Positions 22,239 to 49,200 of a stretch of DNA of 64,000 bases are shown piece by piece. The position numbers and the translations under genes were made by a program. The stretch lies in IMG/VR virus record IMGVR_UViG_3300009155_000040, positions 1 to 64,000 of that record; one strand, given 5' to 3'. The stretch is from a virus. How positions within the stretch are numbered: position 1 is the stretch's first letter; each line of letters starts with the position of its first letter. Below the pieces are notes generated by a model. That model did no database searches, was not told where the DNA came from, and worked only from the letters and a program-made list of their open reading frames with translations.

Positions 22239-22536
22239 TTCGTTATTTAGGCCTCCACGTCATTTAGTTAAAGAGTGGCCAGAAGTGTTTGAAGATTTGT
22301 ATATGAATACCATGCCCGTGGCATATCTAGAGATGGTTCATCTAGAATTTGCCGACGGCAGGGTATGGCAAATCGATATTAAAAATCAGTTAGCCGAAGA
22401 AGCTGCTGAATTTATTGCAGACAAACTTTTGGAAACTTTTCAAGAGTACAAAGATGATATCAAAAAAATTGATTTTAAAATAGATGTAGAAAGATTAAAA
22501 AAAGATATCGCTACTTCAACAAAGGCTATTCTTTAA
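22231..22536 (+). CDS. Hypothetical protein
   Basis: ORF track; start moved to ATG 22231; last + strand gene, whose 3' end overlaps the convergent gene. Confidence 0.65.
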   Translation: MPNSLFRPPRHLVKEWPEVFEDLYMNTMPVAYLEMVHLEFADGRVWQIDIKNQLAEEAAEFIADKLLETFQEYKDDIKKIDFKIDVERLKKDIATSTKAIL

Positions 22537-23395
22537 TATAGCCTTTTTCTTTCATAAATTTAAAAATTTCTTCAGCCATTATTCTATAACCTTCTCTAGT
22601 AGGGTGCATACACGTTGTAATGTAATCTGTAGGTTCTTTTAATTTAGAATAATAGTCATAAAAAGCACCGTCGGCTAATTCTTCCCTACCGTCATATCGT
22701 AATAATAATTGCATAAAACTGTTGCACCCTTGAGGATATAAAAACTTATCCCACGGAATAGAATCTACTAATTCAGTATGCTCTTCTCCAATTTGCTGTA
22801 TAAAGTTTTCTCTAGTAATTCTTTGATCAAATGCACTGGCAACTATAAAATTCCATCCTTGGGCTTTGGCAAACATTGCTGCTTCGCGAATGTTTAATAG
22901 TGCTTCAAGGCAGACAAATTTTTCACTCCATATATCTCGAGAGTATGCTTCCCACAATTGTCGTTGTGTAGCATTTTTATCCCAAGGATTTGGCCACATG
23001 GCAAAAAAGTGATGATGTTCTTCGAATTGTCTATTAATAAAATCAAAACGCTCTATACCACTAAGCATTAAAACAAGAGTAGCTTCATTAGCTTTTTCCA
23101 TTTTAACTTTGGGGTTAATGTACAGCTCTTTTACACTTGCTCTATTTCCTTTACCAGATGCTCCAAAATTTACCGGAGTAAAGTTAGGAAGATGATTTTT
23201 ACAAATTTGAGATACCCAACTATATTCGTACATTTCAAATTCTAAATCTCTAGGAACCTTTAACGGATCAACAAATCCTCCGTATTGTTTATAAGTTTTT
23301 TTACTCCAGCTGCCTACTCCTTGAGTAAAGCTATCTCCTAATCCAATAATTAATTTTGAATTTTCATCTATTATAGGTATATGGATGTCATACAT
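22526..23395 (-). CDS. SGNH/GDSL-like hydrolase
   Basis: IIGLGDSFTQG, NFGASGKGN, CMHPTREGY. Confidence 0.7.
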   Translation of the reverse strand: MYDIHIPIIDENSKLIIGLGDSFTQGVGSWSKKTYKQYGGFVDPLKVPRDLEFEMYEYSWVSQICKNHLPNFTPVNFGASGKGNRASVKELYINPKVKMEKANEATLVLMLSGIERFDFINRQFEEHHHFFAMWPNPWDKNATQRQLWEAYSRDIWSEKFVCLEALLNIREAAMFAKAQGWNFIVASAFDQRITRENFIQQIGEEHTELVDSIPWDKFLYPQGCNSFMQLLLRYDGREELADGAFYDYYSKLKEPTDYITTCMHPTREGYRIMAEEIFKFMKEKGYIKE

Positions 23396-23397
23396 TT

Positions 23398-24654
23398 TTA
23401 TACTTTTCCTAATTTAAAATATTTGTTATACGCTTTTTCTAAACTGGCAAATGCAGGATTTATTTTTGTAGCATTCTTTTTTAGATTTTCATAATTGTGT
23501 TCTAAGATTGGTCGCATAGATTCAATCCAACTTGCTTTATCTTCAATTGCAATTATTTTTTTTATTGACTCAACTATTGCATCGTATCTTTCAAACGTTG
23601 ACAAGTTATCGTAACTTTCATCAATAAATCCATCAAACGTTTTATATCCCATGTCACGCAATTCTTTTAAACTGCCTTTGTTGCCTAAAATAATAAAAGG
23701 ATGAAAACACACAATCGGTTTGAAAACTTTTTCACTTAAGAATAATTGTTGATCAAAATCTGAAAAAGATGCTTCCGACACAACAGTGACCCACGAATCA
23801 AGACATACTTGATCCTGTATTCTTTGTATGTAATATCTATCGTCAAACTCGTTATTATTTTTTCCATGCACTATCAACGGTAACATAGAGTTTGCAACAT
23901 CTGCTCTTTCTTTTGGTAATATGCGATCTTCAAAATACACAGTATTGGTATTAAACGGATTCATACTTACTAGTCCGTGTTTTAATAATTGTTCTTCAAA
24001 CATTCTAATATAAAACCAAACTCTGTGCCCGCGAAGTCTTTTTTGTAGACAATTAAAATCTTTAATTTCGTTTATTTTTTTATATGATAAGTGTTTGTCG
24101 ACTGATGCTTCTAAAGCTGTCCAAACAGAATTATTATACACATCTGCTTCAAAATGCACATAGGGAATTGCAGTCATTCTATTTTCAATAGCATTATCCG
24201 TTGCCCATTGATCATATTGAATAGCACATAAAGAATTGCCGGTGGTGTAAATCACAGCCTCTGGGGGGATTTGATAATCAACACACTCTTTATGAAAAAA
24301 TTCCCATAACCATACTGCATGATATCCTTCCAAACATTGATCAAATAACAGCATTGCCTTTCCGTCACGAACATCATTAAGTTGTTTTTTACCGATATGA
24401 GAAAAGGCTGTTGCTTTGTTGTTTCCTATAGCTTTTGAATAACCTGTCCAATCGTTAGGACTATGATTAACACCAGTAGGTATAATGTACGGACGGGGTT
24501 TATTTTTCATAGAATACTGTCGTGCCATTTGAGTTCTATGTAATATAGTTATAGCCATTGGAGAAGGTGCAAATCGTCTAGACCCAGATAACACAACGTC
24601 CGGACATGCTGTATAATTTAAATAATTTTCTGAATCTTCAAATACAAAATTCAT
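23398..24654 (-). CDS. Putative glycosyltransferase (distant GT10/fucosyltransferase-like C-domain)
   Basis: VVSEASF…FLSEKVFKPI…PFIILG resembles the GT10 (Y/F)-x-(T/S)-EK motif; start moved to the ATGA overlap. Confidence 0.45.
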   Translation of the reverse strand: MNFVFEDSENYLNYTACPDVVLSGSRRFAPSPMAITILHRTQMARQYSMKNKPRPYIIPTGVNHSPNDWTGYSKAIGNNKATAFSHIGKKQLNDVRDGKAMLLFDQCLEGYHAVWLWEFFHKECVDYQIPPEAVIYTTGNSLCAIQYDQWATDNAIENRMTAIPYVHFEADVYNNSVWTALEASVDKHLSYKKINEIKDFNCLQKRLRGHRVWFYIRMFEEQLLKHGLVSMNPFNTNTVYFEDRILPKERADVANSMLPLIVHGKNNNEFDDRYYIQRIQDQVCLDSWVTVVSEASFSDFDQQLFLSEKVFKPIVCFHPFIILGNKGSLKELRDMGYKTFDGFIDESYDNLSTFERYDAIVESIKKIIAIEDKASWIESMRPILEHNYENLKKNATKINPAFASLEKAYNKYFKLGKV

Positions 24655-26015
24655 ACTGTTGCACACTCAAAATAGAATTCTTCCAATTCTGGAAAGGTTT
24701 TTACAAAATCTGTACCTCTTCTACGATCATATTCCGTGAACCAATTAAAGAAGTCGCGTTTGCCTTCTAACAGCTTCTCTGGGGTATAGATAGCTGATTC
24801 CATGTATTTCACGACTCTTTCAAATTTAGCATACTCTAAGTCGTTGAATTTACTACGGTTTTTATCGTCTAAATTGGCTAGAATGAAGTCTAGGTGCCGT
24901 TTCATATAAGGTATAAATTCATCTTTAGGCAAAATATTCATGTCGTACTGTAACGGTTCTTTTAAGTAGGGTGTATCAAATCGGATACGCTGCCATTTGT
25001 TTTGTTCAAATCCATTGTACTTAACACGCCACTCTAGAATTTTTTCTAACAAACTTTGGAAGTTAGTCACTGTAAGGATATTAAAGGTTATCATAAATGT
25101 AACCGGTAATTGAGTTTTTGTTAGATATGTATCTAAGTTACGCTCCCATACAGTTAAGTCCAATCCTGTACGAATGTATTCTGCCGGTGCTCCCCAAGTA
25201 TCCATACTGGTAAAAATTTTAAAATCTTTAATACAACTATTGGCAATCAAATTATTAACTTTTTCTACTAGCCTATCGATTAAAATCGGCTTGACTCCAA
25301 AATTTGAGTTGATGTTTAATTCAAGATTAGGCAACGGATTGATCAATAGATCATCTAATAGCTTCCATGTGCTAGATTGCAATAACGGCTCGCCACCAGT
25401 AATTCTTAGGATAGTTAAAGTCTTACTAACTTCCGGCCACCACTTCCACCACGCTATCACATAGGGATTAGTTTCTTCTTCGTAAATTTGAAACCAGTCA
25501 ATATCGTTGCGATGATTCTTAACCATAGTGTAAGGACCGTGATCTTTAATTTCTTTGTAATATGCACTGCTGTGTTTTGGATGACAATATCCGCATTTAA
25601 AATTACATTCATTACCAAAACTTACTTCGATGTACTGAGGATTGACAGGAGCTAGAGGATCGGCTTTAATAGCTCCTAATCGTTGTTCTGTAAAGATACT
25701 GGCATTGCGTTCATGTCTGTCGCTGATATAATCTTCGCCTAATGCTTCAATGTTCCAACAATAATTACATCCGGAAGGTTTTTCTCCTGCTATCATTTCA
25801 GCACGTTGACTGATCTTTTCTTTAGTGTTATGCAATGCACTAGGGTCTAGTGCAATTTCGTCTAAAGGAATTTTATGCGGGGCGGGATGATAACAACTGT
25901 GTGTTTCACCTGTACCTAAATAAATGGTTGTGTGATGCCATTTAGCAAGACAAAAGGTAGGAGAGATTTCATTCATTATAGGAATGAATTTCTTAATCCG
26001 GATCTTATCGTCCAT
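24651..26015 (-). CDS. Radical SAM protein with N-terminal Cys-rich (twitch/SPASM-like) domain
   Basis: CNFKCGYC, ITGGEP; N-terminal CLAKW…SCYH…CNYCW. Confidence 0.88.
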   Translation of the reverse strand: MDDKIRIKKFIPIMNEISPTFCLAKWHHTTIYLGTGETHSCYHPAPHKIPLDEIALDPSALHNTKEKISQRAEMIAGEKPSGCNYCWNIEALGEDYISDRHERNASIFTEQRLGAIKADPLAPVNPQYIEVSFGNECNFKCGYCHPKHSSAYYKEIKDHGPYTMVKNHRNDIDWFQIYEEETNPYVIAWWKWWPEVSKTLTILRITGGEPLLQSSTWKLLDDLLINPLPNLELNINSNFGVKPILIDRLVEKVNNLIANSCIKDFKIFTSMDTWGAPAEYIRTGLDLTVWERNLDTYLTKTQLPVTFMITFNILTVTNFQSLLEKILEWRVKYNGFEQNKWQRIRFDTPYLKEPLQYDMNILPKDEFIPYMKRHLDFILANLDDKNRSKFNDLEYAKFERVVKYMESAIYTPEKLLEGKRDFFNWFTEYDRRRGTDFVKTFPELEEFYFECATV

Positions 26016-26703
26016 TTAGTTTATCCTTTGACAGTTCATATTGTTCTTTTAACCAATCAAAATCATTTATCTTTATTAACTCACTTGGCGCATTTTGCCA
26101 GAACAGACCAAAATATTTTCCTGCAATTGCCCCCATATAAGCATGAGAGCCATATGGGACTGCATCGTTTAGTGTACACCATGCTTCTAATCGCTGTGTT
26201 GTCTCTAGGTCATCTTGGCGGTCAATGGTTTTACTTGCCAACTTGCAACATTCTCTGAAAGCTGATTTCCATGTATTGAACGAATCTGTATTGAATGCAG
26301 TAATGTTGCTGACTTCCGGCATTGCTTTAAACAAAGAACTAATACTTGTTGTCATGTCTGGAGTAGAGACATCCATATTTTGTGTTAGTCGTTTAGGCAG
26401 CAACTTAACTCCACCGTATCCGTATTCTAAATCATTGATAGGATTACGACTGCGCCAAACATGCACACACTCCAAATCGTATTTGCTAACTTCGTAATCA
26501 AAATTAAATGTATCAAGTATTTCTGCATCAGCATCTACTACCCAAAACATTTTTGTAAATGCTTTTTTTGCTGCGGCAATATGTGCTTGGTGTATTCCTT
26601 TAATTCCATGCACTCTGTGTGCGTAAGGAAACCTTGCCTTTAACTTAGCAAAGTTAGCATCTGCATTTGGTTCGTTATAACTGATAAAAATAATATCGTA
26701 CAT
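26005..26703 (-). CDS. GT-A-like putative glycosyltransferase
   Basis: DIIFISYNEPNA, WVVDADA (DxD), YGYGGVKL. Confidence 0.6.
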   Translation of the reverse strand: MYDIIFISYNEPNADANFAKLKARFPYAHRVHGIKGIHQAHIAAAKKAFTKMFWVVDADAEILDTFNFDYEVSKYDLECVHVWRSRNPINDLEYGYGGVKLLPKRLTQNMDVSTPDMTTSISSLFKAMPEVSNITAFNTDSFNTWKSAFRECCKLASKTIDRQDDLETTQRLEAWCTLNDAVPYGSHAYMGAIAGKYFGLFWQNAPSELIKINDFDWLKEQYELSKDKLNGR

Positions 26704-27584
26704 TATTGCCTAAAATAAGTTAATCCGAGATCTATTGTTTCATTATAAAGATCTAAAACATATTTGCTCTGCTGGGCATCAAGGTTGGGCCAATCTAACC
26801 CTAAATTAAGTTTAATTTTTTCTCCAAGGTCCTGTATGTCTTTTTCAAGACATCCATGCAAAACATTTTCTTGGTATATATTTTTAAGAATTTCAAAATC
26901 TCTAACTTGGACATAATCCCAATCTGTACAGTTAGTCATCCATGTACCAAGCCTTGCACCATGTATTGCATATAATCCGTTTTCCTCATGGGCTCCTACA
27001 GTACTCCACATACGCAACCTATGGATATTATGCCACCATATATGATCCTGTAATTCCATTGCTGGAACTTTAATTCCGTCCTTCAATGTCATCTTAACAC
27101 CTTCACGGAATCCTGCTCGCCATGCTTGGAACGGCGAACCTGTGATAATGCTTTCACTGTAGACTACTGGGAAATTTCGATAACCGTCTTCCCAACAGAA
27201 ATCTACCTGTGCCCTATCGCTTGTACTGGCTTCATGGGTTTGCATATTGAGAATAAACTCTTTTTTCCAAATTTTAATTCCGCCGTTACCGTAACGTAAA
27301 CCATTAATTTTATTTCTACCACACCAACCATAAACTTGTATCTTTGGATCACTCATATCTAGATCTAAATCAAAAAATTTAGGATCTACAATATTATCTG
27401 CATCAACAGTTATAAGCCAATCGGTATCACTCAAGTTGGCTGCGGCTTTGTGTGCATGGTCGCTGCCCTTAACACCGTGTACTCGTTTTGCCCACGGAGC
27501 TTTATCGCATAAGTCGGCATAATGTATATCAGCATTTGGTTCATCGTAACTGATAAAAATAATATCAAATTCTACTATTTTCAT
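26703..27584 (-). CDS. GT-A-like putative glycosyltransferase, paralog of 26005-26703
   Basis: DIIFISYDEPNA, ITVDADN, YGNGGIKI, AWRAGFRE. Confidence 0.6.
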   Translation of the reverse strand: MKIVEFDIIFISYDEPNADIHYADLCDKAPWAKRVHGVKGSDHAHKAAANLSDTDWLITVDADNIVDPKFFDLDLDMSDPKIQVYGWCGRNKINGLRYGNGGIKIWKKEFILNMQTHEASTSDRAQVDFCWEDGYRNFPVVYSESIITGSPFQAWRAGFREGVKMTLKDGIKVPAMELQDHIWWHNIHRLRMWSTVGAHEENGLYAIHGARLGTWMTNCTDWDYVQVRDFEILKNIYQENVLHGCLEKDIQDLGEKIKLNLGLDWPNLDAQQSKYVLDLYNETIDLGLTYFRQ

Positions 27585-28204
27585 TTAATCTCCAATACAT
27601 AATTTTTAAACAATCGTCTTGTATACACACTAAATTTAATAGGTAAATCTAAATTTTTAAGTACAAATTTCTTTCCTACAAGATCTGATATTTTTATAGA
27701 AAACGGTTTGTACAATACATTAGGATCATTGTAATCTGTAATTAAAAAATTCATATCAGTATTACCGGCCCAATTGATTTTTTTCTTTTTAACTGGTTGG
27801 AATTTCTTAGGAAGTTTTTTAGTTCCACCGTATTCTTCAGTTAATTCTAGTGTCAACGAGTTTGCTTTATAAGTTAAAAATACATTTGGTTTATCAAATT
27901 CTGCATGTTGCACTTCAACAATGCGATGTAACACATCGTCTATTTTATATAAAGCTCTAGTTTCGGATATAACATAACTGTCGCCTGTGATGTCCACCGA
28001 ACAAGAATTAAGATTAATTTTACCTTCAATGATCATTTCAGCAACTTCTTGATCCATTGGAATTTTATGTTCTTCATTTAAAAATGCAGACTTTGGACCA
28101 ACTGCTGTTATTGCGCCTGATGTCGGATTAAACACAGCAAAGAATTCTACCGGAGGTAAAATAATAGGTTCGAATAACATATCAAAATCAATTATTTCTT
28201 CCAT
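27581..28204 (-). CDS. Hypothetical protein
   Basis: ORF track; within the GT block. Confidence 0.7.
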   Translation of the reverse strand: MEEIIDFDMLFEPIILPPVEFFAVFNPTSGAITAVGPKSAFLNEEHKIPMDQEVAEMIIEGKINLNSCSVDITGDSYVISETRALYKIDDVLHRIVEVQHAEFDKPNVFLTYKANSLTLELTEEYGGTKKLPKKFQPVKKKKINWAGNTDMNFLITDYNDPNVLYKPFSIKISDLVGKKFVLKNLDLPIKFSVYTRRLFKNYVLEIK

Positions 28205-29031
28205 GCTATTTCCTCTAAAATATTAATTACTTCTTGTGTAATTTTATCTTTTTCTACATAATGAACAATATTATGTTGTTGATAGTTTCCTATTTTTACC
28301 TGTCCTTTGCGATTTACATAAAATCCCAAATGATCGCTCCATACATCTGACGGCCAAGGAAAGTTTTGTATCATGCCTTTCATGTGTACTACTTTAGGAA
28401 AATCTAAATCATATGCGATATCATCAGCAATATCTAAAATTTTTGCTGCTAGGGCAAAGGCTTCGTCAGTGCCAACAACTTTTGGTTTAAGTTCTGTTAA
28501 AAATAAATTTGAAAATTCTACAGGATTTTCAATAATACTGCGAGCCAATGTAAAAAACTCTTTGGCTACAGCACTGTCTTTTTTAAAAAATGTATAGAAA
28601 CTATAAAGATTAGGTAATTTATTTTTTGTAAATGTCCTACGATAATAGTCACTGTCTACTAATTCTTCTCTATAGGTATATGCATTATTGGCAATATACA
28701 ATTCATTATTTTCTACAAAATAATCAATCCAATGACTGTAGTCTCTAGTAAACAACATGTCAGAATCTAAACAAACTGTATAATCAAAAGGACTGTATGT
28801 GTCCATCCATGATCTAGCATCCCAACCTTTATACTTTTCAATTTTTTCTACATGATCAAACACCCAAGAAGATTTTAATTTCTTTACTGCATCGACATCG
28901 TCTGTCATTAGACATACTTTGTCATATCCTTCTTTTTGAGTATTCTTAATACTAAGTGCTAATGCATAAGCTAGATTGAGATAATCTATATTGTCATTAG
29001 TAGAAACAAAAATTAAATATCCAAAGTTCAT
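28192..29031 (-). CDS. GT-A (GT8-like) putative glycosyltransferase
   Basis: YLNLAYALALSIK, SPFDYTVCLDSDMLF, GTDEAF, late VH.K. Confidence 0.65.
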   Translation of the reverse strand: MNFGYLIFVSTNDNIDYLNLAYALALSIKNTQKEGYDKVCLMTDDVDAVKKLKSSWVFDHVEKIEKYKGWDARSWMDTYSPFDYTVCLDSDMLFTRDYSHWIDYFVENNELYIANNAYTYREELVDSDYYRRTFTKNKLPNLYSFYTFFKKDSAVAKEFFTLARSIIENPVEFSNLFLTELKPKVVGTDEAFALAAKILDIADDIAYDLDFPKVVHMKGMIQNFPWPSDVWSDHLGFYVNRKGQVKIGNYQQHNIVHYVEKDKITQEVINILEEIAWKK

Positions 29032-29891
29032 GCTAACTCCATTAGTTTTTCTGAGTGGCGAATAATACTTTGTTTGTTCATCACATGGATATCAAGTCCT
29101 CTTACAGCAGCGGCATAATAATTGTTGTCGCTGTGTGGACTTGCTAATATTATTAGTTTTCCTGTAGCGTCTACCGAATGTAAAACATCTTTATCTAATA
29201 CTGTTAAAATAGGAGGAAGACTTTCGTTGGTGGTTGTTTCAAACCCATCTAATATATGTTTTGCCACACTAAAAGAAATGTCATTTCTATACTGTGTTGT
29301 GTCGAATCGAAATAGGTCAGCATAATATTGATAGTTTTGTCTAATAACGTTGACCAGTTCAAAAAACATTTTGCTGTAGGGTGTTTTTTTAAACATCACA
29401 GTTGTTGCCCAATATAAATGGACCCCTGTATCGGATACATATTTGTCATGATATCCTAATCTTTTTTGATCGTAGATGTCTAGCATATTTTTAGCAATCA
29501 TAACATCTGCATCAACGTCCCAATACGAACTCAATCTATTGGAAAAAATTAAAAAATCACTGTCCATTAACAGTGTTTGATCATACGGTGTTAACTCGTA
29601 CACATTAGCACGGTTGGCATTGACAAATGGAATATTTTTAAAATGTACACCGTCGTGCAAGCGTCTCATATTGTCTGTTATTGGACGATCAACTTCTATA
29701 ATTTTATCGAATGTTGAAACTAGTTGTTCATAGTTGTTTGATATTTTAGCCCATTCTAATGTAGAGGGGTCTGTAACTAATGACACCGGTATACCTAAAT
29801 TCTTTTTAGCCAAGCGAGCAGCTAACATTGCCATGTATGCATAGTCAATGTCTCTATTGTTGTGTGCAAATATTAATGCGCCGCGTGTCAT
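29028..29891 (-). CDS. GT-A (GT8-like) putative glycosyltransferase, paralog of 28192-29031
   Basis: YAYMAMLAA, TPYDQTLLMDSDFL, RNDISFS, late HVMNK. Confidence 0.65.
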   Translation of the reverse strand: MTRGALIFAHNNRDIDYAYMAMLAARLAKKNLGIPVSLVTDPSTLEWAKISNNYEQLVSTFDKIIEVDRPITDNMRRLHDGVHFKNIPFVNANRANVYELTPYDQTLLMDSDFLIFSNRLSSYWDVDADVMIAKNMLDIYDQKRLGYHDKYVSDTGVHLYWATTVMFKKTPYSKMFFELVNVIRQNYQYYADLFRFDTTQYRNDISFSVAKHILDGFETTTNESLPPILTVLDKDVLHSVDATGKLIILASPHSDNNYYAAAVRGLDIHVMNKQSIIRHSEKLMELA

Positions 29892-30238
29892 ATGTCTAAT
29901 AATTTTTCCACACTGCGGCTTTTTTTAAGTTCTTGAAATTCTTGATAGTACTCTAATGTAGTATCATAATATCTGTCAAATATATCATCTCTAAATTTTT
30001 CTAAATCTTCAATCATGATTGGATTTTCGTTGGAATCAATTAAGGGAACATTTTCTGTTCTTCCCTGATCAATAAACATCTGTACAAATGTTATTAACGA
30101 TTTGTCAATCTTAAAGATGCCGCCGTTTTGACCAATGGTTAATTTGGCTTCAATTTTTTCTTTGAGAAGGCGTCTTTGGATTGAAAAGGTCTGACGATAG
30201 TTTGAAAACTCTAGAGCTTTTTTGAGTTGCTCTTCCAT
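29888..30238 (-). CDS. Hypothetical protein
   Basis: ORF track; first gene of the GT block; AGGGG SD. Confidence 0.7.
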   Translation of the reverse strand: MEEQLKKALEFSNYRQTFSIQRRLLKEKIEAKLTIGQNGGIFKIDKSLITFVQMFIDQGRTENVPLIDSNENPIMIEDLEKFRDDIFDRYYDTTLEYYQEFQELKKSRSVEKLLDI

Positions 30239-30265
30239 AATAATCCCCTAATTAAAGTAGCAGTT

Positions 30266-30272
30266 TATTTAT
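30266..30272 (-). promoter_or_regulatory. T4-type late promoter for the GT block
   Basis: TATTTAT on + = ATAAATA on -, upstream of the SD and ATG 30238. Confidence 0.55.
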
Positions 30273-30295
30273 TGTGCTAGATAATCAGGAAAAAA

Positions 30296-33019
30296 TTATG
30301 TGGTTGGTGCAGTGGTAATTTGTATTGTTGGTGTTGTTACTTGGAAATTGCCTGACCCACCTGGCAATAGTGTACCAGTGGCTTCAAGCGTTGACAATGA
30401 AATACTTAATGTTCCGTCAACACCTTCTGTTGCGCCGCCGATGCCTGTGTGATTATCTGTCCACTCAACTTGGAATTCGATGCTGGATGCGGTTCCTGCA
30501 GAGTTATCCGAAATGCCTGGAGTTCTAGCATAAATTTTATAGGTGTTTGTTGAATATGGATTTGATGATGTAGCAGTATACCATGCATTAAATCCGTTGC
30601 TTAATCTATAAAAATTACCGCCATTCAAACTTCCAGTTTCAGCAATTGGTTTGTTTCCGCCAAATGCTTGTGTGCCGATTCCCGTTAAGAATGTTGTCCA
30701 ATTTGCATTTTGAGCAGCAATTGCGCCTGTAGTTGATCCACCGGCCCTTGCTGATAAAAATCTTATTTCACCGCCACTATTGAAGAACGCTCGGGCTTGG
30801 GCAGCAGTTGGCCAGTATACACTGATTAAACTGTATACTCTAGTGGTCCAAGTTGAGCCAAGTGCACCTGGCCACGCTGTTTCAGAATACCAAGATCCTA
30901 ATCCCACAGGAGCAGTCCTAGTAATGGCCTGTGTAGCAGAAATGTCAAATTTTTGTGTAACCAACACATCGGCCCAAGTAGCATATTGTTTATAAGGTGC
31001 AGTTGCAGTATGAGCTCTTACAGTTTCTCCTACAGATGCATTGACCAATGTTGGTGTAGTTCCAACCTGATGTATATAGGCATTGATAATGTCATATTTT
31101 AACGTAGTCCAATCAGTTACTGAAACTCGATTGCTGGTTGTTATTTGATTACTGAAAACTGTTTGTCCGTAACCGCTATTTCCAGAACCTACACCTAATA
31201 CACCAGCTACTTTAGCTTGGATATCGTTGTAGTCTGCAACCTGAATAGTTTTAGAAACCCATATACCCGAAGCTACGCCCGTACCTTGAGAAGCGGTACC
31301 TAAGTCGGTGCCAAGTGTTAATGATGTTGCTGGCATCACTGTGCCGGTGCCGGTGCCTGGACCAGTTGCTGTAAATGTTAATCCTGTTGTGGCTGTAAAT
31401 GTTTCTGGAATAGCACGTCCTGTTCCAGGGCTAGTTGTTATAACTGTTGCTACTGTGATTGTCATACCCACAGTATATGTTATTCCCGACGTGCCGGCAA
31501 TGTTATTCCATTGAGTATTTGTTGTCGAACCTATTACTTTAATTGTATAGACTTCACCGATTTGGAATGCAGCAACATCTACCCATCCTGCACCAACTGC
31601 TGTATAGTCTGTGGTTCCCAAAGTTACTACGGTATATTTTTGAGCTGCTACCATTGCTGTTGCATTGATAAATCCAGATCCTGTGGCAGTGAATGTTACA
31701 CCAACGGTATTTGACGATGCACCAAATTTTGTAAAATCAGTGTTGCCAGCAAATGTAATAGTGTAAGATCTACCACTGACAAAATTACCAGCGGTTACTA
31801 AACCTGTGGCGGTGGCTGTGAATACTGTACCTGCAGTATTATTAGCGGAACCAAGATCTGTCCATATTGTTGTGCCTGCGGTAATAATAGTATAAGAACG
31901 GCCTATTACTAAGGCACCCGGATAATCAGCTGTGTTAGCCACAGCATTTTGATATAGGTCACCAATTTTAAATGATGTAAAACCTAAACCGTTGTTTAAG
32001 CTGAGAAGGGCAATTTCTTCACCTTCTGTAATACCGCTATCTGCGGCAATGGTTATTGTGGTACTGGCCATTCCACTAAGACCGCCATCTGTACTAGATA
32101 CTGTAAATGACCCAGTTAAAGTTGCAGGATTAAAATCAGTGCCGGTAATGCCTGCACCGGAAATTGTGTAAGGCAACACTGTACCATTTGGCACATTACG
32201 TGTATACATGTATACAATTATGGAGTTACCGTCAGACACTCCAGGAAGATTAGTCTTAAAAGAAAATTCAGCTTCGTCATAGGTAAGGATGATAATACCT
32301 TGCGACCCAGCTCCGCCAGCTGTAAATCCGCGAGATACATATGACGCTCCAGGGTTTGGTGTTCCGCCGGTAGCTGTCCTTTCTGTAGATACTCCTTGAG
32401 ATGCACCGCCACCTCCGCCTGAACCCGTGAAGCCCTGTCCGTCGGCACCGGTTAACCCTTCGCCGCCGCCGGCGCCGCCACCGCTTGCACCCCTGGTGCC
32501 ACCTGCTATTGGTCTTGCGGTTGTTTGATCAAATACTCCGCAGCCGCCGCCGCCGCCGCCACCATAAAGGGTTCCTTTATACAGATATCCTGCTGCGCCT
32601 GCACCTCCAATAATCCCATTTTCAGGTAGTCCGTTATTAGCAGGACTAGGGCCGCCGCCTCTCGCACCTGCACCTTGAGACGTAACGGTAAGCACACCAT
32701 CAATAGTTCTAGAGGATCGGTTACTGCCCAATGCCCCTCCACCGAGCGCACTTAGTGCTCCAAACGTAGTAGTAAAACCGGTACCGTTTGGTGCCACGCT
32801 GGCTCCGACGGCATACGATATTGATGTGCCAGGACTAACTATTATATTCCTTGTAAGGAGGATACTGCCGCCGGCGCCGCCGTAACCGCCACCGTTCACG
32901 TTTCCTTGTCCAGCAGCACCGCCACCAACAAGAAACACCTCACTAAGTAAAAAACAGTTAGCAGGGGGGGTCCATGTTGTGGGTGATGTACTGGTTAGTG
33001 TGACTGTTTGTACGGCCAT
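30296..33019 (-). CDS. Gly/Thr-rich tail fibre/appendage protein
   Basis: Gly-rich N-terminus, central ~40-aa Thr-rich repeats, C-terminal domain paralogous to 33057-33977. Confidence 0.75.
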   Translation of the reverse strand: MAVQTVTLTSTSPTTWTPPANCFLLSEVFLVGGGAAGQGNVNGGGYGGAGGSILLTRNIIVSPGTSISYAVGASVAPNGTGFTTTFGALSALGGGALGSNRSSRTIDGVLTVTSQGAGARGGGPSPANNGLPENGIIGGAGAAGYLYKGTLYGGGGGGGCGVFDQTTARPIAGGTRGASGGGAGGGEGLTGADGQGFTGSGGGGGASQGVSTERTATGGTPNPGASYVSRGFTAGGAGSQGIIILTYDEAEFSFKTNLPGVSDGNSIIVYMYTRNVPNGTVLPYTISGAGITGTDFNPATLTGSFTVSSTDGGLSGMASTTITIAADSGITEGEEIALLSLNNGLGFTSFKIGDLYQNAVANTADYPGALVIGRSYTIITAGTTIWTDLGSANNTAGTVFTATATGLVTAGNFVSGRSYTITFAGNTDFTKFGASSNTVGVTFTATGSGFINATAMVAAQKYTVVTLGTTDYTAVGAGWVDVAAFQIGEVYTIKVIGSTTNTQWNNIAGTSGITYTVGMTITVATVITTSPGTGRAIPETFTATTGLTFTATGPGTGTGTVMPATSLTLGTDLGTASQGTGVASGIWVSKTIQVADYNDIQAKVAGVLGVGSGNSGYGQTVFSNQITTSNRVSVTDWTTLKYDIINAYIHQVGTTPTLVNASVGETVRAHTATAPYKQYATWADVLVTQKFDISATQAITRTAPVGLGSWYSETAWPGALGSTWTTRVYSLISVYWPTAAQARAFFNSGGEIRFLSARAGGSTTGAIAAQNANWTTFLTGIGTQAFGGNKPIAETGSLNGGNFYRLSNGFNAWYTATSSNPYSTNTYKIYARTPGISDNSAGTASSIEFQVEWTDNHTGIGGATEGVDGTLSISLSTLEATGTLLPGGSGNFQVTTPTIQITTAPTT
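31450..31910 (-). repeat. About four degenerate ~40-aa repeats (G-R/Q-x-Y-T-I…G-T-T-x-W/F-T…G-x-T-F-T-A-T)
   Basis: GRSYTIITAGTTIWTDLG, GRSYTITFAGNTDFTKFG, AQKYTVVTLGTTDYTAVG, GEVYTIKVIGST; boundaries approximate. Confidence 0.7.
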
Positions 33020-33044
33020 TATTGTGTTATCCTTAACTCAGGAA

Positions 33045-33052
33045 TATTTATA
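33045..33052 (-). promoter_or_regulatory. T4-type late promoter (exact TATAAATA)
   Basis: TATTTATA on +, upstream of ATG 33019. Confidence 0.7.
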
Positions 33053-33056
33053 TAGT

Positions 33057-33977
33057 TCAAGTCGCAGTTATTGACGATATTGAATACGTTGGGCTTGTGA
33101 TAGTAAATGTTCCAGTAGGCACTAACAATCCTGCTGCTTTTAGTTCGTCCACAGCCACTGCCAATGTGCCGTCTATTACATCTCCCGGTGGAAAGATTGT
33201 AGGAGGGTTTGGATACCCAGGATTTAGCGTATCTGGATCAACATAAGCATCATTCCAAATTACCTTGATGTAAACAACTGTGGCTGTTCCGCCCACATTG
33301 TTTGCCACATTAGTTTTGGCCTGCAATTGATAATTGTTAGACGAGTAAGAGCTGGTTGCACCCTGTTGATAAAATGTTTGATAAACATTGGTTAACGAAT
33401 AAAATGTTGCACCGCCGGGTGTGTTTGCACCAAGTCCCTGTGATCCAATAGTATCTAACAAACTTGTCCAAGATGAATTTTGTGGAGTTGTTGCTCCGCC
33501 GGTTCTCGTACTGGAAATTCTAATTTTTCCGCCACTGTTAAAAAAGTATCTTGCTTGATTTGCTGAACCAAAAGTAACAGTAATCTCACATGATGATTGC
33601 GATGCCCATGATCCTGTTCTTGATGTTCCGGGTTTAGCAGTAATTACTGACTGGTCAACACCAATATTAAATCTATTTAGACTGGCTGCGTCAGCAGCAA
33701 TATCAAATCCGTTGTTAGGAAATGTTATTCCTTGTTGAATAACAGATAGTGGTTCCACTTCTGCAAGAGCAGGTTCTCCGCCATCTTGATGTATTTTGAT
33801 ACTGCGAAGCATGTTGCGCAAATCGTCCCATTGAACTTTGGAAATTTGCTCGCCTTGCGATACTGTGGCTCCTAATACTGTTTGTCCATACCCCTTTGAG
33901 CCCGTGCCTGTCCCAAGAATGTCAACAATCTTGGCGCGGATATTATTGTAATCGGATGATGATATTTGAGTAGGCAT
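33057..33977 (-). CDS. Virion structural protein (tail/collar-associated)
   Basis: DYNNIRAKI…GYGQT…FFNSGGKIR…W..LL..IG.Q shared with the C-terminus of 30296-33019. Confidence 0.7.
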   Translation of the reverse strand: MPTQISSSDYNNIRAKIVDILGTGTGSKGYGQTVLGATVSQGEQISKVQWDDLRNMLRSIKIHQDGGEPALAEVEPLSVIQQGITFPNNGFDIAADAASLNRFNIGVDQSVITAKPGTSRTGSWASQSSCEITVTFGSANQARYFFNSGGKIRISSTRTGGATTPQNSSWTSLLDTIGSQGLGANTPGGATFYSLTNVYQTFYQQGATSSYSSNNYQLQAKTNVANNVGGTATVVYIKVIWNDAYVDPDTLNPGYPNPPTIFPPGDVIDGTLAVAVDELKAAGLLVPTGTFTITSPTYSISSITAT

Positions 33978-42545: not shown

Positions 42546-43208
42546 TTAGACCTCAGTGAAACCAGTTAAACTCTGTATGCGGATTGTATAATCAATCTGC
42601 AATAATCTGTTTAAAGATTTTTGTACAGGGTGGAATACTACATGGGTCAACAGTTTGCCGCCCTCTGGATGAAATGATTTTAATCCCAGTTCATCAAATA
42701 CAAAGTTGCCGGATAAATCAACAGAATTATCAAATGCTTCTTGCCCTAACGGTTCACCGTAGTCAAGCAAACAGGTTACAATAATGTCACTGTAAGTTGC
42801 TCCGCTAACATGGCGTATCTCCATTTTATTTCTAATTGGATCTGTATTTTCAATAACGTTTTGATCAACAATTTTGTTATAAGTTTGATTGTATAAGCTA
42901 GAATTAATTCCTATAGTATTCGGAGTCAAATATGTTATCAATCCAGTTGGGTCAACCACTGTGCCGCCAGTGCCGAATACCATTTCATATATGGTTCCGT
43001 TGCCTTGATTTGATAAACTGTTAACCATTGCTACTGACATGTTTTCGTAATGTATAGCATTTCGTTTATCAACAGCAATTTCGCCGGTTTCGGGATACCA
43101 AATTTTGATATGTCCTTCAAAATGGAACCCGCCTGTTTCATTTGGGCGAGTTGTTTGTTGTTTGTTTTGATCGTTATTTTCTGGCATGTTAGTCTCTTGT
43201 GATTCCAT
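42546..43208 (-). CDS. Baseplate/fibre-attachment structural protein
   Basis: FGTGGT…FDELGL…LLTHV.F.PVQKS…I.YTIRI; position between the wedge and fibre genes. Confidence 0.55.
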   Translation of the reverse strand: MESQETNMPENNDQNKQQTTRPNETGGFHFEGHIKIWYPETGEIAVDKRNAIHYENMSVAMVNSLSNQGNGTIYEMVFGTGGTVVDPTGLITYLTPNTIGINSSLYNQTYNKIVDQNVIENTDPIRNKMEIRHVSGATYSDIIVTCLLDYGEPLGQEAFDNSVDLSGNFVFDELGLKSFHPEGGKLLTHVVFHPVQKSLNRLLQIDYTIRIQSLTGFTEV

Positions 43209-43213
43209 AGTAG

Positions 43214-43220
43214 TATTTAT
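43214..43220 (-). promoter_or_regulatory. T4-type late promoter (ATAAATA)
   Basis: 5 nt upstream of ATG 43208. Confidence 0.55.
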
Positions 43221-46200
43221 TCGGGCAGTCTAGTAGTCTTTTTAGCTATGAACGCAGCAATAGGAGTACTGTTTTCTAACAATGTAATACCCTTGCTGAC
43301 TGTTGTAGCACCTTTTTCGTACCAAATATTGCCTACCTTTTTAATAATTGAAATTCTAGTTCCGGCTGGTATTTTAGATGTTAGTCTAATGTACGGACTA
43401 ACTCCATCTACTGAAAAATCAGCTTCTAAAACAACGTCCGAGGACGGACTAGATGCTCCTAGTGACTCATCGTATACTTGTAGAGAATCTTTTCTCAATC
43501 TTTCTCCGCCAGCAAATACTTCAAATTCATCACAAGGTCCGTATTCTTCTGGTATAGTAACAGTTGTTGCTGTAGTCCATATTCTGCTAGATTTCGTTGG
43601 GATAAAATCTAACGGGCCAACTAACAATGTGCTTCCGTCGCTTATAAAGTCTAATTTATTTTGACTTTCTTTGTAAGGAATTGTTTCATTTCTGCCAATA
43701 TCAACTACAAAACTTCCTGCACTATGAATAGGTGCAATAGCTGTTCCGCTAACTCCACGTCTTAATTGAGTTAGCGTATTGCCAGTTTTTTGTAGATATT
43801 CAATTCTTTCACTGTTAATTATCAAAGTTCCAGGAATGTTTCTTTCTCTCATGGGTTCTGATAACGTTGACGCATCTGTCACAACAATCTCTTGATCGTA
43901 ATATGTTAACTCTTTGGTTAGAGTAACTGTACTGTCAACACTGTATCGTTTGAAAGAATAACCGTTTAACATATCTTTGTGTATTTCATATGCGCTCGGT
44001 GATCTATATATTTTAGAACCAAATAATACTATTTTAATAGTATCATCAGTTGTTGTGGAGTCTTTCAAGTAGACAACACCACGCGGTAGAGAAACATAAA
44101 ACTCTCTGTCCTGAACAAGTCGTTCTCCGTTTTTGTATACCCATACATAACTAGCATCCAATGGTGCAAATCCTAACTGATAGTTAATTTTTCCGCCAAC
44201 ATATTCGTCGGACACTATTTCCATTGACGGATATTCACTAAACCAAGTAATTTTGATAATGTCATTATCTGTTTCGTTTGTTGTTGACATTGGGAGCGTA
44301 CTGTTTAAAGTTAATATTGTAGCTGTTGAATCTGTTGAAATTGTATATTCAGCTCTAAAATCATTTTCAATCTTAATAGTATCGCCCTCGGACATGTCCT
44401 TAGTGATTATCAACTGTTTTGTCGGGCCGTTGTAGATATAATCTTTAACAAACTCTGTTAACTCGTTATTAACAAAAACTTTTATGTTAGAAGATAATAC
44501 TGTACCAGCACCTTCGAGAGGGTCTACTCCAATAACAAAAGTATTTGTTACGCCGTCATATATTGCTGATATAGTATCCACACCTTGCAGTATTGTTCCA
44601 TTAAGTTCAACCACAACTGATGCAACGACCGATCCTTTTGATTGAATGCTTAAATCAGCGATTTCAAAGCTTCGTGTGCTTCCTTCAAATTCAAATTCTT
44701 GTGAATGCACTCTAACAATGCCTGAGGATGTTGCGCCTGGGCCTATTGATAGAATTTTAATAACTGAGTTGGCCAATGGGGTTGTTCCAAATTGTATCAA
44801 TGTTTTTTCTAATGTGTCTACTACATTCGTGCTGTTGATAAACCCGGTATCTTCGTAAATTCCGTTAACCGATACTGAAACCATATCTGTGTCTTTAAAA
44901 TTTGCATTGGTCAAGAATAAATTCGTTTCACCGTCTGCAATAAACTCCTGATAATCTAACAATGCAACACCGCCAATTCCAAAAGATATTAATTCAATAA
45001 GCATTCCTGTTGTAGGTGCTGTATTAAACAATACTTCATTGGATACAAAATCTATAGAGTAATCAAAAGAAGATGTTCCTTGATACTCTTTTTTGTTTTT
45101 GTCAACATACACCAATAATGAATTAGATTCAAATATGTTTAAACCTATTTTAAATATTGTATCGCTACCGTTACCTACTAGTGTTTTAGTCTGTAGAGGT
45201 GCAGCACCGTCGCTATCTGTTGTAAACACTTTAATGCTAACGCTGTCAAGAATCTGTCCTGGGATATTCTCTTCAGGAGCAGGTACTTGATCTGGTCCGA
45301 TCAACTTACCGCCGTCGATGGTTATATCTTCTGCTCGTGTTCCTGTTGCAGTAATATATGCCGGACCCATTGCTGCAAACGACCCGCCGCTGAGTTTAGT
45401 ATCTAATAAATTAGTGTCGTTAATTGTAACAGATCCATCACTGTCAACTGTTCTAAAAATTAATGTATCGCCGGCATTGGTGTGAACATACTCGCCAATT
45501 TCAACTACCTTAGTAGAGCCGTCGCCAATAAACGTAGGCATTAGTGCATTTGGATCAGTTCCTACCACTCCGTCAATTCTAACTGTTGGCTGGTTAGAAA
45601 TAATTGGTTCGTAGACCACTGTGGGTGCTGTATCATCTCCTAATGTCTGTATTGTCTTTGGTGAGCGGCCTAGTCCGGATCCTGTTCTCTTTAGATATAC
45701 ATTTATTTCTTTTCCATCTAATGGTGTAAACGGTAATGTAATATTTGTTGTGCTACCATCGCAGACAACATAAAAATCAGCACTTGATTCAACGCTGTCC
45801 CATGCATCGGTAAACCACGGTAACGCATCCCAGCCACCTGTTACGTCAAAGGTCGTTCCTTGTACCTGTACTCCGCCATAGTCTATACCTGTCATTAACT
45901 GTCCAAGGTCTTTGCCTTTCATTCCAGTTAATGGATAGTAGTATTTGCTGATCCTGTTAACACTGTCTAATAATTCATCATTTTTTACATAATAAATTTC
46001 AATTAAGTCGCCTAGATATCCAGTGGCTACATTTGGACCTGCTGGAACTTCTGTGAATATAATTTTACCTTTTAGTAAAGAGAATGTGTCAGTGCTTGAT
46101 TTAAACAACGTGATATTGTATTCGTTGCTCAATACCACTTGGTTATTTTTTAACACCTGAATTTGACTCTTATCTCGCGTTGGAGCATAAGCCAATTCAA

Positions 46201-49200
46201 ATGTTGCACTGTATCCGTTAGCTCTAAATTGTTGGAAATTATCTAGAGAAGATAATAAACCAGTTTTAGTAAATCTGTCAAATTTTATTCCTAGATTAAA
46301 TGTTCTAGCTTTTGTATTTCCGATAATTGCCACAGCAGTTGCAGTATTGTCGCTTGATCCATTACCGCCAACTAATGATATAGTCGGAGCTGATGTAAAA
46401 CCTGTTCCTGAATTTATTATCGAAACACCTGATACTTTGCCATTAGAAATGTACGCTTTAGCAACAACTCCGGTTCCGTCTCCTGTAATTAATACATTTG
46501 GAGCTTGAACATACCCGCTTCCAGGATTTGAAATTTTTATAGAAACAATTTCATATGTGTGATTATCAAGCCACGATCTCCATGGGTAGGCCAATGATGT
46601 TTCGTCAGATGCTGTTACAGGTAATATTTTTCCTTCTGCTACTGAGAATGTAGGTGGCAAATCAAAATCGGTATTGGCTGATCCAACACGATCTATTTTT
46701 TCGTAATTGCTGATATATTCTCGAATTGTGGTTCTATACGGCTTAACTTCGTTTATGTATTCTTGATAACTTTCAAGGTTATCGTTTTTGTAATTAAGTT
46801 TTTCTTTTAATTCTCCGACATAATGAGTAGCATTTAAGAAACTTGTTTTAAATGCCCAGTCGATATACTGTTGTTCTGCAAGTGCATATCGAACTGATGT
46901 AAAGAATAATTTATTCCATTCGTTTTCATATTCGCCAATGAATAAAAATTCTTTGATACGCTGTAAAATAATTCTTAATTCTTTGCTGTTGTCGATGTCA
47001 TAGGAATCGGTGTCAAAAGAAACAGTATTGTCAAAGCCAATACCGGACAATTTATTATTCCAAAGAGATTCTGCTAACTGAATAGTTCCTGTGCCGCGGC
47101 CAACTAATTTGTACCTAGCAAAGAATTCTGCACTATCAGAAACTCTTTCAAATACTGCCCAGTCTCCGGTATCATATTGCTTTGCTCTGATCAAATCGCC
47201 AATTTTGGTAGTAAGTAGTGGCTCATAACTTATATCTGGGATTTCTGTTGTGATTCTAGTTTTTATAGAATAGCCTTCGGCCCACCAGTCATATGCATAT
47301 CCGTATCGAGTAGTGTCAAATGCTTGCGCTCTACTTCTATAAAATGTTTGACGCTCATTGTCCCAAGAATAAATTCCCCAGAATCCTTTAGTTGTTTCGT
47401 CAGATGTAACCAACACAGCAAATTGTCTTACGCTGGCTGTTGCTTCACTGTATTTTTTACCTTTTGAGACTACGGTCACTGATGCAATTCTGCCTTGGTT
47501 ATCAAGAACAGCCGTTGCCGATGCACCGTTACCGTCGCCATAAATGCTTACGGCAGGCGTTACTCGATATCCAAATCCTGGATCTAAAATGTCGATAGAG
47601 GATATTTGATTATTTGAAATATTAACTCTTAATGTGGCCTGTTTCACACGAGTTGTACCAACTGTCTGCAATGCTTCGTAAGTGTCTACCGCTTGGTCGT
47701 ATAGATTTAATGCCTGATCGGGCGGCATATCTATTAAATTTAAATCTTCAATCAGTATCTGATCAGCCCAAGGTTGTTGTAATAAAAATTCATTTACCTT
47801 TGTTACAATTATTTTTAGTATAGGCGCACGGTTAACAAACATGCTTTGTCTTGGTCTAAAACTCAATCCATACTTTTGTTTGGCTGGTAAGTTAGGGTCG
47901 GGCACCGGGCCGCCCTGTGAATCAACACCAATCAAACTGTCTAACCATTTAGTTTCTAATGCTTCTGTCGGTCTACTTAATATATGGTCTTCTGTTAACA
48001 GTTGGTATTCGTTATGTATTGGATTTAATTTATCGCTATTTTTAAAATACTGTATGTTCAATACCGCAGTATCCGACGACATGATTGATTTAAAATTATA
48101 AGCTATAAATTTATCGGAATCAATCAATGCAATGTGTGCAATTCCTGATGCAGCCGGATTGGTAATATACGACGAAACCGTAGCAGATGAAATTTCCCTG
48201 CCTGGCATGTTTTCAGGTACTGTTGTTTTATTTTTAACCCAGTAAAAGTATAAAGTTCCAGAAATTTCGCCTGTGGTTGGATTGTATAATTCTTTAACAG
48301 AATATACTGTATCATCTGGATATTTAGGTTGCCCTGAGATACCTAGCGCCAATCCTTCTGTAGTGTCTGCTACAATAGACCATTCGCTTGGTAATAATCT
48401 AGTTTGTACCCATTCATAAACATCAACGCTTGACCCTTCTACTAGACCGTTCCAGTTGCTGGTCTTGTATGCAATGTCGCCTTGTTCATAATATTTCCAC
48501 TTGACTCTAGAAAGATCCCACCATAGTTTTCCAACATTTTTTTCTGCCCAAGCTGTTGTCGAATCAACTGCTTGATTGTCTGTGCCTATTGTATAAGTTG
48601 CTGGGTCATATAGTGTTTTGAATTTAATTTCTTTTTCAGCTGAATTAAGTATTTTTAATTTTGAATGGTCAACATAATCAATGTCTTGTACTTTGACATT
48701 TTTAACCGTGTCGTACATTGAAATGCTTTTAACTTTTCTTACATCAACCAATGGTTTCTGCTGTTCTAAAATTTCCCACGAATTAACCGACGGGTCTTTA
48801 GTAAACAATCTCACAGTACCAATCATTGGACCATCAAACAACACACTCGATCCAGTGTTAACTGGTGCTCGGTAATCTGGTGATCCGACAGCAATTTCAG
48901 AATCAGTACAGTCTAAAGTATAACCAAAAGACTCGTACGGTGATGCTTCGATTTCTAATTTTTCAACTAGGAAGAATTGATCATTTTTCTTTTCAAATAC
49001 GTAGACGCCGCCGGCATATCCTGAACGTTCAACGAATCTAGTTCTGCCTTGATCAAAAGTAGTTTCTTTAGTCGAATCTAATTTTGCCAGTACAGTGAAC
49101 GGTGTATTCTTAGAACCAATTGCAATTCTGTTACCAGACGAGCTAATTGAAACATTTTGTCCAAAGAATTCATTAGGATATTTTTCAAAACTTTCTAATT

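Follow-up and report, generated by a model that had tools for sequence, protein, structure and literature searches.

The glycosyltransferase operon and its genomic setting

What would a jumbo phage build with a row of sugar-transferring enzymes encoded directly behind its tail fibres, and onto which acceptor would the sugars be placed? The question is raised by an operon in the IMG/VR virus record IMGVR_UViG_3300009155_000040, of which the first 64 kb of 139 kb (CheckV completeness ~40%) are called the window here. A reading made from the sequence alone had placed a late, tail-linked cassette for virion glycosylation at positions 22526-30272. The cassette is present there, with nine minus-strand genes filling 22526-30238 (Table 1); seven junctions overlap by 1-13 nucleotides (nt) and the remaining one leaves a gap of 2 nt, a packing that marks the nine genes as one operon. 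The fibre genes adjoin it as described, f907 and f306 being structural genes located just upstream on the same strand. The locus is a genuine phage glycosylation operon, widespread and so far uncharacterised, and the conclusion that it builds a glycan is solid, as it is a multi-enzyme cassette of four GT-A fold glycosyltransferases (GTs) in which DxD motifs and other conserved residues are kept.

The minus-strand block of the window carries baseplate hub and wedge genes, the gene of a 4637-amino-acid (aa) protein and a row of fibre genes, and the plus-strand block encodes a T4-type DNA polymerase, FolE, QueE and an exonuclease. The wedge protein was matched by 93 phage records and is 32-36% identical to its counterparts in jumbo phages of the Atu_ph07, SCTP-2, 121Q, GAP32 and PA5oct type. 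The source is an RsoM2USA-like jumbo myovirus, with the operon at the 3' end of its fibre module. Scans of the nine proteins against Pfam, PHROGs and NCBIfam returned almost nothing apart from the radical S-adenosylmethionine (SAM) enzyme, and megablast of the operon region against phage records gave zero matches. Alignments were built from relatives because the curated libraries were almost blank for these proteins.

Folds and conserved residues of the four glycosyltransferases

Two of the enzymes had been read as GT8-like paralogs, and this is borne out. The proteins g287 and g279 are paralogs with 24% identity (E 8e-6), and the only entries of the Protein Data Bank (PDB) matched by their joint profile were glycogenins, at E 2.5e-7 and over the N-terminal half including the DxD motif; PDB searches with the single sequences of g287, g422, g454 and g289 were empty or gave chance matches only. 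The AlphaFold model of g287 (predicted local distance difference test, pLDDT, 91) aligned over its whole length with glycogenin-1 (Foldseek E 2e-8; VIA Z 16.9, root-mean-square deviation 3.5, 212 residues aligned), followed by AgtA, LgtC (Z 14.7), UGGT, LARGE1 and GlyE, with WbbM (Z 13.6) also among the structural neighbours. The second aspartate of the DSD motif at residues 110-112 (D112) does not vary among 28 sequences, and the glycogenin DAD aligns with it. Both D112 and H269 are invariant across the two paralog groups, and H269, near the C-terminus of g287, is a candidate equivalent of the metal-ligand histidine of glycogenin. Like the glycogenin/GT8 clan (LgtC, AgtA, GlyE and the UGGT catalytic domain), whose GT-A fold fits the whole of g287 at Z 16.9-13.9, the protein combines a DxD motif with a conserved histidine near its C-terminus; unlike the curated members of that clan, it lacks a Pfam GT8 match (no hit of g287 or g279 to PF01501 at E <= 0.1) and shares 10-15% identity with them. 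Judged from the modelled structure, g287 and g279 are GT8-fold GT-A glycosyltransferases, and their chemistry is probably retaining.

The two further DxD GT-A paralogs of the sequence-only reading correspond to g293 and g232, which are paralogs with 35% identity (E 6e-35). The model of g293 (pLDDT 95) comprises a GT-A domain at residues 1-150 and then a helical domain, and the structural check of the earlier calls thus returned GT-A folds for the models of both g287 and g293. The best solved Foldseek match of g293 was the capsid glycosyltransferase A64R of PBCV-1 (E 1.4e-5), followed by GT2 enzymes, and in the VIA comparison B4GALNT1 scored Z 11.7, while WrtF, SpsA, SunS/ThuS and A64R scored Z 9-10.6, a range that same-fold nucleotidyltransferases also reach (Z 9-10.5). 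A glycosyltransferase of Mycobacterium phage Che8 was found among the viral fold neighbours. Within the DAD motif at residues 61-63, D63 is invariant and D61 nearly invariant (79 sequences). The GT2 model PF00535 matched neither g293 nor g232, and its hits to fused homologues were sub-threshold only (E 0.001-0.004).

The g293 family is large and unannotated, comprising more than 8000 close clusters (at 90%) and 1234 at 50% identity, and several domain fusions were observed in it. The g293-like and g232-like domains occur as one chain of ~500-540 aa in many genomes (P0122, P0126, P0129-P0131), ~20 proteins of ~730-770 aa fuse a GT1/GT28-type GT-B domain to the g293 domain (P0186, P0192, P0213 and others), and one protein (P0173) fuses a g293-like domain to Sel1 repeats, which bind proteins. 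The conserved aspartates and the fusions favour a transferase role for g293, and the fusions tie the family to glycosylation; on the modelled fold, g293 and g232 are DxD GT-A glycosyltransferases of an unannotated family.

Conservation and linkage to the fibre module

A scan of species genomes for the operon yielded 72 loci, of which 15 are phage contigs (several mis-binned into metagenome-assembled genomes, MAGs) and the rest chromosomal. The 15 phage loci are divergent, sharing only 30-50% identity, and one infects Ralstonia; their shared gene order runs giant protein, f220, fibres, f306-type gene, g116, g287, g279, variable slot and g293, beyond which radical SAM and g422-like paralogs follow in varying number. 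A closer set consisted of 80 viral contigs with g287 identities of 57-93% (L078-L157), all of which keep g116, g287, g279, g207, g293, g232 and g454. Past this core they carry up to two extra radical SAM paralogs, which brings the g454-type genes to as many as three, and 0-2 copies of g422, and g289 is present in 4 of the 80. From this gene content, the cassette consists of a conserved seven-gene core and two accessories. The order fibre, g116, GT8, GT8, X, GT-A recurred in ~95 related contigs. It is likewise kept in Ralstonia phage RsoM2USA (343.8 kb), the only one of 50,697 phage records reached by tblastn with g287, g293 and g454. Its ORFs (open reading frames) 354-348 are syntenic with the operon and all annotated as hypothetical, and they are not discussed in the RsoM2USA paper (PMC8504454). 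The comparison of these loci supports a physical and evolutionary tie between the operon and the fibre module. The operon might also correspond to the four core GT orthogroups described for the 'moraphages' (PMC12619734).

On chromosomes of Rhodobacterales, Bdellovibrionales and Bacteriovoracaceae, g293-like genes lie amid GT2, GT4, GT28 and FkbM genes, neighbourhoods whose annotated content points to glycan work. In the predatory bacteria the chromosomal g293-like genes sometimes adjoin an N-twitch radical SAM gene, and in Rhodobacterales they adjoin a caspase-Sel1 protein.

The operon-bearing phage contigs (L004, L006, L007, L054 and others) were binned in MAGs of Bifidobacterium, Neomarinimicrobiota, Rickettsiales, Pacearchaeota, Fischerella and other taxa; these labels look like binning contamination rather than evidence of host.

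The promoter and its hairpin

The sequence-only reading had assigned the operon its own ATAAATA late promoter, an assignment that gained support. The motif, 27 nt before the g116 ATG, is rarer than expected in the window (9 observed versus 28 expected), ~18 of its 22 copies in the 139 kb precede a same-strand gene, and a TAAATA core lies 31-39 nt before g116 in all 70 related viral contigs, with diverging flanks. By these sequence patterns, a late-type promoter before g116 is well supported in the RsoM2USA-like close lineage.

The promoter region folds into a hairpin (free energy -18.7 kcal/mol, z -6.3; 0 of 200 shuffles equally stable), the loop of which contains the promoter core and the 3' arm of which pairs with the Shine-Dalgarno sequence and the g116 ATG. 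When each sequence was folded singly, this layout was kept in 24 of 33 distinct relatives with differing arm sequences; RNAalifold, run on promoter regions aligned with MAFFT, returned no consensus structure. For T4 genes such as e and soc, read-through transcripts are silent and transcripts from the late promoter are translated. By analogy, the hairpin is a candidate late-only translation gate, by which read-through mRNA would stay silent and late-initiated mRNA would be translated.

Elsewhere in the window, an ATAAATA core at 43214-43220 stands only 5 nt before the ATG of a 220-aa gene (42546-43208), for which a leaderless mRNA or a miscalled start codon may be considered.

Candidate acceptors of the glycan

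Chloroviruses, mimiviruses and mycobacteriophages are established cases of virion glycosylation, and the literature yielded no such report for phages of Gram-negative bacteria. For the present operon, an acceptor among the phage-made structural proteins of the virion is the likeliest option and comes close to an even prospect. Across ~95 loci, virus-encoded glycosyltransferases adjoin structural genes, as is characteristic of virion glycosylation systems, and the late promoter is conserved in the close lineage. The late, hairpin-gated promoter speaks for a virion acceptor, as do chemistry that is cytoplasmic and free of membrane components and the position of the FolE/QueE deazaguanine genes on the other strand, among the replication genes. 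As to the membrane components, no 19-residue window in any of the nine proteins exceeded the Kyte-Doolittle hydropathy threshold of 1.44, and hence no membrane helices or signal peptides are predicted; neither a flippase nor a polymerase nor a priming transferase is found among them. Moreover, the four-GT core is kept at 30-50% identity across phages, one of them on Ralstonia, which favours a conserved phage-encoded acceptor over host-specific lipopolysaccharide (LPS).

The proteins encoded just upstream are the first candidates. Both f907 and f306 share a C-terminal module (DGT...LEATG...F.VT.PT...) ending in a Thr/Ser/Pro tail, for example TTPTIQITTAPTT in f907 and SPTYSISSITAT in f306. PT-containing tails occur in most relatives, and in nearly all of them the gene directly before g116 has this C-terminal ending. 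As a lead only, such a tail is a candidate acceptor or chaperone-recognition element.

Known systems offer partial parallels. PBCV-1, with A64R and its partner GTs, likewise relies on virus-encoded soluble cytoplasmic GT-A enzymes without host endoplasmic reticulum or membrane machinery, and A64R is the best solved match of g293, at Z 9.4-9.6 and over ~140 residues only, with 14-19% identity; the system differs in its eukaryotic algal host, in its target, the major capsid protein, and in lacking a radical SAM partner and fibre linkage. In mycobacteriophages Che8, Corndog and Myrna, as reported by Freeman et al. 2023 (cited in PMC12619734), GT genes are neighbours of structural genes, and virion subunits carry the glycans at their C-termini, a placement that may be compared with the Thr/Ser/Pro tails of f306 and f907; the Che8 enzyme is also the fold neighbour of g293 mentioned above. 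These systems, as cited there, differ in belonging to actinobacteriophage siphoviruses with 1-3 GTs and without a radical SAM enzyme. Their GTs share no BLAST-detectable homology with the operon, for which the acceptor is only putative.

Several points weigh against a virion acceptor. The Thr/Ser richness of the adjacent fibres, invoked by the sequence-only reading, was measured at 17-25% Ser+Thr, which is ordinary for fibres; these proteins being generally rich in both residues, the argument is uninformative and was rejected. Near-consensus sigma-70 promoters (TTGACA-17-TATAAT) precede g116 in six relatives at 30-40% identity, and 5 of the 10 sigma-70 matches with at most one mismatch in ~290 kb sit at that place, which suggests early or constitutive expression of the operon in these relatives. 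Their fibre genes retain ATAAATA, and the timing of the operon may differ between lineages. In the window itself, the operon shows no enrichment of internal sigma-70-like sites (53 found versus 45 expected). Epimerase or NTP-transferase genes for nucleotide sugars were not found in the 139 kb, which are ~40% of the genome. In addition, soluble GTs could act on lipid-linked inner-leaflet intermediates through host export, GT8 enzymes often act on LPS, and the bias towards protein glycans among the structural neighbours may reflect what was crystallised. Zaragoza-Solas et al. 2020 (PMC7029224) interpreted an island of fibre, GT8 and radical SAM genes in pelagimyophages as modifying the host O-chain, and this published view of such host-recognition clusters likewise favours another target.

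The corresponding explanation for the present operon, a serious rival if rather unlikely, holds that the soluble GTs act on the infected cell's lipid-linked intermediates of O-antigen, LPS core or capsule and modify them, and that the altered surface blocks superinfection or keeps progeny off debris. GT8 is a classic LPS family, with LgtC and WbbM among the neighbours of g287, and the sigma-70-type promoters of the distant relatives and the cellular homologues in GT2/GT4/GT28/FkbM clusters would fit. On the other hand, an operon gated to a late promoter in the close lineage would come at a poor time for protecting the cell, its four-GT core is kept across phages of very different hosts including Ralstonia, it encodes no membrane component, and it is anchored to one type of fibre gene and lies outside the early/accessory region. 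The host recognition clusters of pelagimyophages and cyanomyophages resemble the locus in belonging to T4-type aquatic myoviruses and in joining fibres to GT8 and radical SAM cassettes in a variable island (PMC7029224). They differ in that their enzymes are not close homologues (the tblastn search of 50,697 phage records reached RsoM2USA only) and in that these clusters are non-syntenic (PMC7029224), whereas the operon core here is conserved and ordered.

Glycosylation of a modified base in the phage DNA, either a hydroxymethyl-pyrimidine or a deazaguanine derivative, is very improbable as the task of these enzymes. Phage GT-A and GT-B enzymes are known to glycosylate DNA (Pyle et al. 2024, cited in PMC12619734), the source phage has deazaguanine genes, RsoM2USA has a second, divergent ThyA-family gene, and sigma-70 promoters precede the operon in distant relatives. 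Against this, the promoter is late and gated in the close lineage, and the operon always ends the fibre module, at a distance from the genes of nucleotide metabolism. The deazaguanine block is on the opposite strand, and a search for ThyA-family genes drew a blank in the 139-kb record, itself only ~40% complete. The divergent gene of RsoM2USA (MG752970.1, 7739-8398; L077) encodes a protein scoring 85 bits, versus 242 bits for the canonical thymidylate synthase; by its sequence it may be a pyrimidine hydroxymethylase.

With a virion acceptor, the operon would specify a soluble cytoplasmic pathway of glycan assembly and tailoring that travels with the tail-fibre module and is switched on late in the RsoM2USA-like close lineage. 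The two GT8-fold and the two new-family DxD GT-A enzymes would transfer sugars one after another from nucleotide sugars of the host, the glycan would be edited by the N-twitch radical SAM enzyme g454, g422 and the SGNH protein g289 would be variable accessories, possibly for further tailoring, f306/f907-type proteins would be the first-candidate acceptors, and g116 might serve as chaperone or adaptor. The folds, motifs, fusions, synteny, conserved promoter and lack of membrane segments come from the analysis itself; which sugars are donated, in which order the enzymes act, what the radical SAM enzyme does to the glycan and, most of all, what the acceptor is are the parts of this mechanism that we infer. 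The multi-step glycan pathway of the sequence-only reading stands as far as the four GT-A enzymes, the fusions and the fibre linkage are concerned; its GT10 step and its Ser/Thr argument fell away.

The fuller proposal is held tentatively and with some doubt: the fibres or another virion protein of a very abundant aquatic jumbo-phage clade and of RsoM2USA would carry a phage-built oligosaccharide, laid down by the fixed four-GT core and diversified by the fast-evolving N-twitch radical SAM enzymes and accessories. If true, phages of Gram-negative hosts would gain their first case of virion glycosylation, together with a new class of radical sugar-editing chemistry, which would tune host recognition or shield the fibres; with glycosylated fibres, host-range prediction and phage engineering would have to reckon with a layer of sugars that the fibre sequence does not reveal. 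The operon is in any case very common and holds two enzyme families to which no reaction has been assigned, namely the g293-type GT-A enzymes and the radical SAM enzymes of the N_Twi type, and as the cultured phage RsoM2USA carries it (ORFs 346-354), the question of the target is testable at the bench.

The radical SAM enzyme and the accessory genes

The twitch-radical SAM call for g454 was confirmed: the protein is a full-length member of NF033640 (N_Twi_rSAM; 319 bits versus a cut-off of 170), with CxxxCxxC at residues 137-144 (Cys 137, 141 and 144) and four N-terminal cysteines (22, 41, 83 and 86). No published reaction of the NF033640 family was found in the literature; g454 covers the full model, yet membership names the protein without explaining its chemistry. 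SPASM/twitch radical SAM enzymes are commonly peptide maturases, and they bring in another explanation, in which the operon makes a different cytoplasmic product, such as a glycosylated, radical-SAM-modified peptide or small molecule or a glycosylated host protein, for take-over or defence evasion. Its appeal lies further in the S-glycosyltransferases SunS and ThuS among the fold neighbours of g293 (Z 9.5-9.8) and in the pairing of GT-A and N-twitch radical SAM genes that recurs in Bdellovibrionales chromosomes. Such a product is nevertheless quite improbable, as a gene for a precursor peptide is not apparent, neither g116 nor g207 shows Cys-rich or leader-like features, and the strict fibre linkage would be left unexplained.

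The SGNH call for g289 survived in part. GDS at residues 20-22 (block I) and HPT near residue 264 (block V histidine) were read from the translation; on the other side, the score against Lipase_GDSL PF00657 (19.7 bits, E 0.001) is below the cut-off of 23.6, and the block V aspartate is off its canonical position. No PDB or phage match was obtained. These motifs hint weakly at an SGNH esterase or acyltransferase.

The GT10 label of g422 was dropped, since every sequence test failed. The GT10 model PF00852 matched neither the protein nor its 10-member alignment nor the genome, and g422 had no Pfam, NCBIfam or PDB-sequence match as protein or as profile. No annotation was gained by tblastn against phage records, and a homologue search gave 501 clusters with no Pfam domain among the 120 listed. 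A conserved motif VTET...F.TEK.KP is present, and a GT10 pointer of 0.79 from the protein atlas was not accepted as evidence of GT10; from these data, g422 may be a GT-B/GT10-like enzyme.

The remaining proteins g116 and g207 found no family in the Pfam, PHROGs and NCBIfam scans. The former is conserved at 27-44% identity in relatives including RsoM2USA (ORF354), and it may be a fibre chaperone or adaptor because it opens the operon in every case. The latter matched only unnamed viral clusters in the protein atlas. The slot between g279 and g293 that it occupies is filled in locus L018 (9229-9999) by a 2-oxoglutarate/Fe(II) (2OG-Fe(II)) oxygenase (PF13759, E 2e-21), and in another relative by a 444-aa homologue of g207.

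Coordinates and neighbouring features

The positions of the operon genes, the regulatory elements, the neighbouring structural genes and the related loci are given in Table 1.

Table 1. Features of the operon and of its relatives; positions refer to the window unless an L-numbered locus is given.
Feature	Position	Strand	Description
g116	29888-30238	-	small acidic protein, always first operon gene; no family match
g287	29028-29891	-	predicted GT8-fold GT-A, probably retaining; DSD 110-112, invariant H269
g279	28192-29031	-	g287 paralog; same invariant residues kept
g207	27581-28204	-	no family; slot variable across lineages (97-444 aa)
g293	26703-27584	-	predicted DxD GT-A, unannotated family; DAD 61-63; C-terminal helical domain
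g232	26005-26703	-	g293 paralog; the two fused in other genomes
g454	24651-26015	-	radical SAM, N-terminal twitch/SPASM-like Cys cluster (NF033640)
g422	23398-24654 (ATG; alternative GTG at 24666)	-	unannotated family, VTET...TEK...KP motif; variable accessory
g289	22526-23395	-	putative SGNH esterase or acyltransferase; rare accessory
Terminal hairpin	22521-22546	.	convergent junction with plus-strand block; marks operon end
Late-type promoter core (AATAAATAAA context)	30266-30272	-	27 nt upstream of g116 ATG
Promoter/Shine-Dalgarno hairpin	30236-30300	-	loop holds promoter core; 3' arm pairs with Shine-Dalgarno and ATG
f907 (Gly_rich_2 domain) and f306	30296-33977	-	structural genes just upstream; shared C-terminal module
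f907 and f306 C-termini	30296-30340 and 33057-33100	-	shared module and Thr/Ser/Pro tail
Sigma-70-type sites before g116	L004:7351-7400, L006:6536-6565, L007:3536-3570, L011:6775-6832, L013:1164-1219, L018:7030-7058		0-2 mismatches
Chromosomal homologue loci	L066:6025-10930, L052, L043, L026:2404-11849, L027		

The 4637-aa ORF of the minus-strand block (43217-57130) is a single ORF located between a baseplate wedge gene and the fibre genes, and the relatives hold shorter homologues at the same position, such as that of 2540 aa in RsoM2USA.

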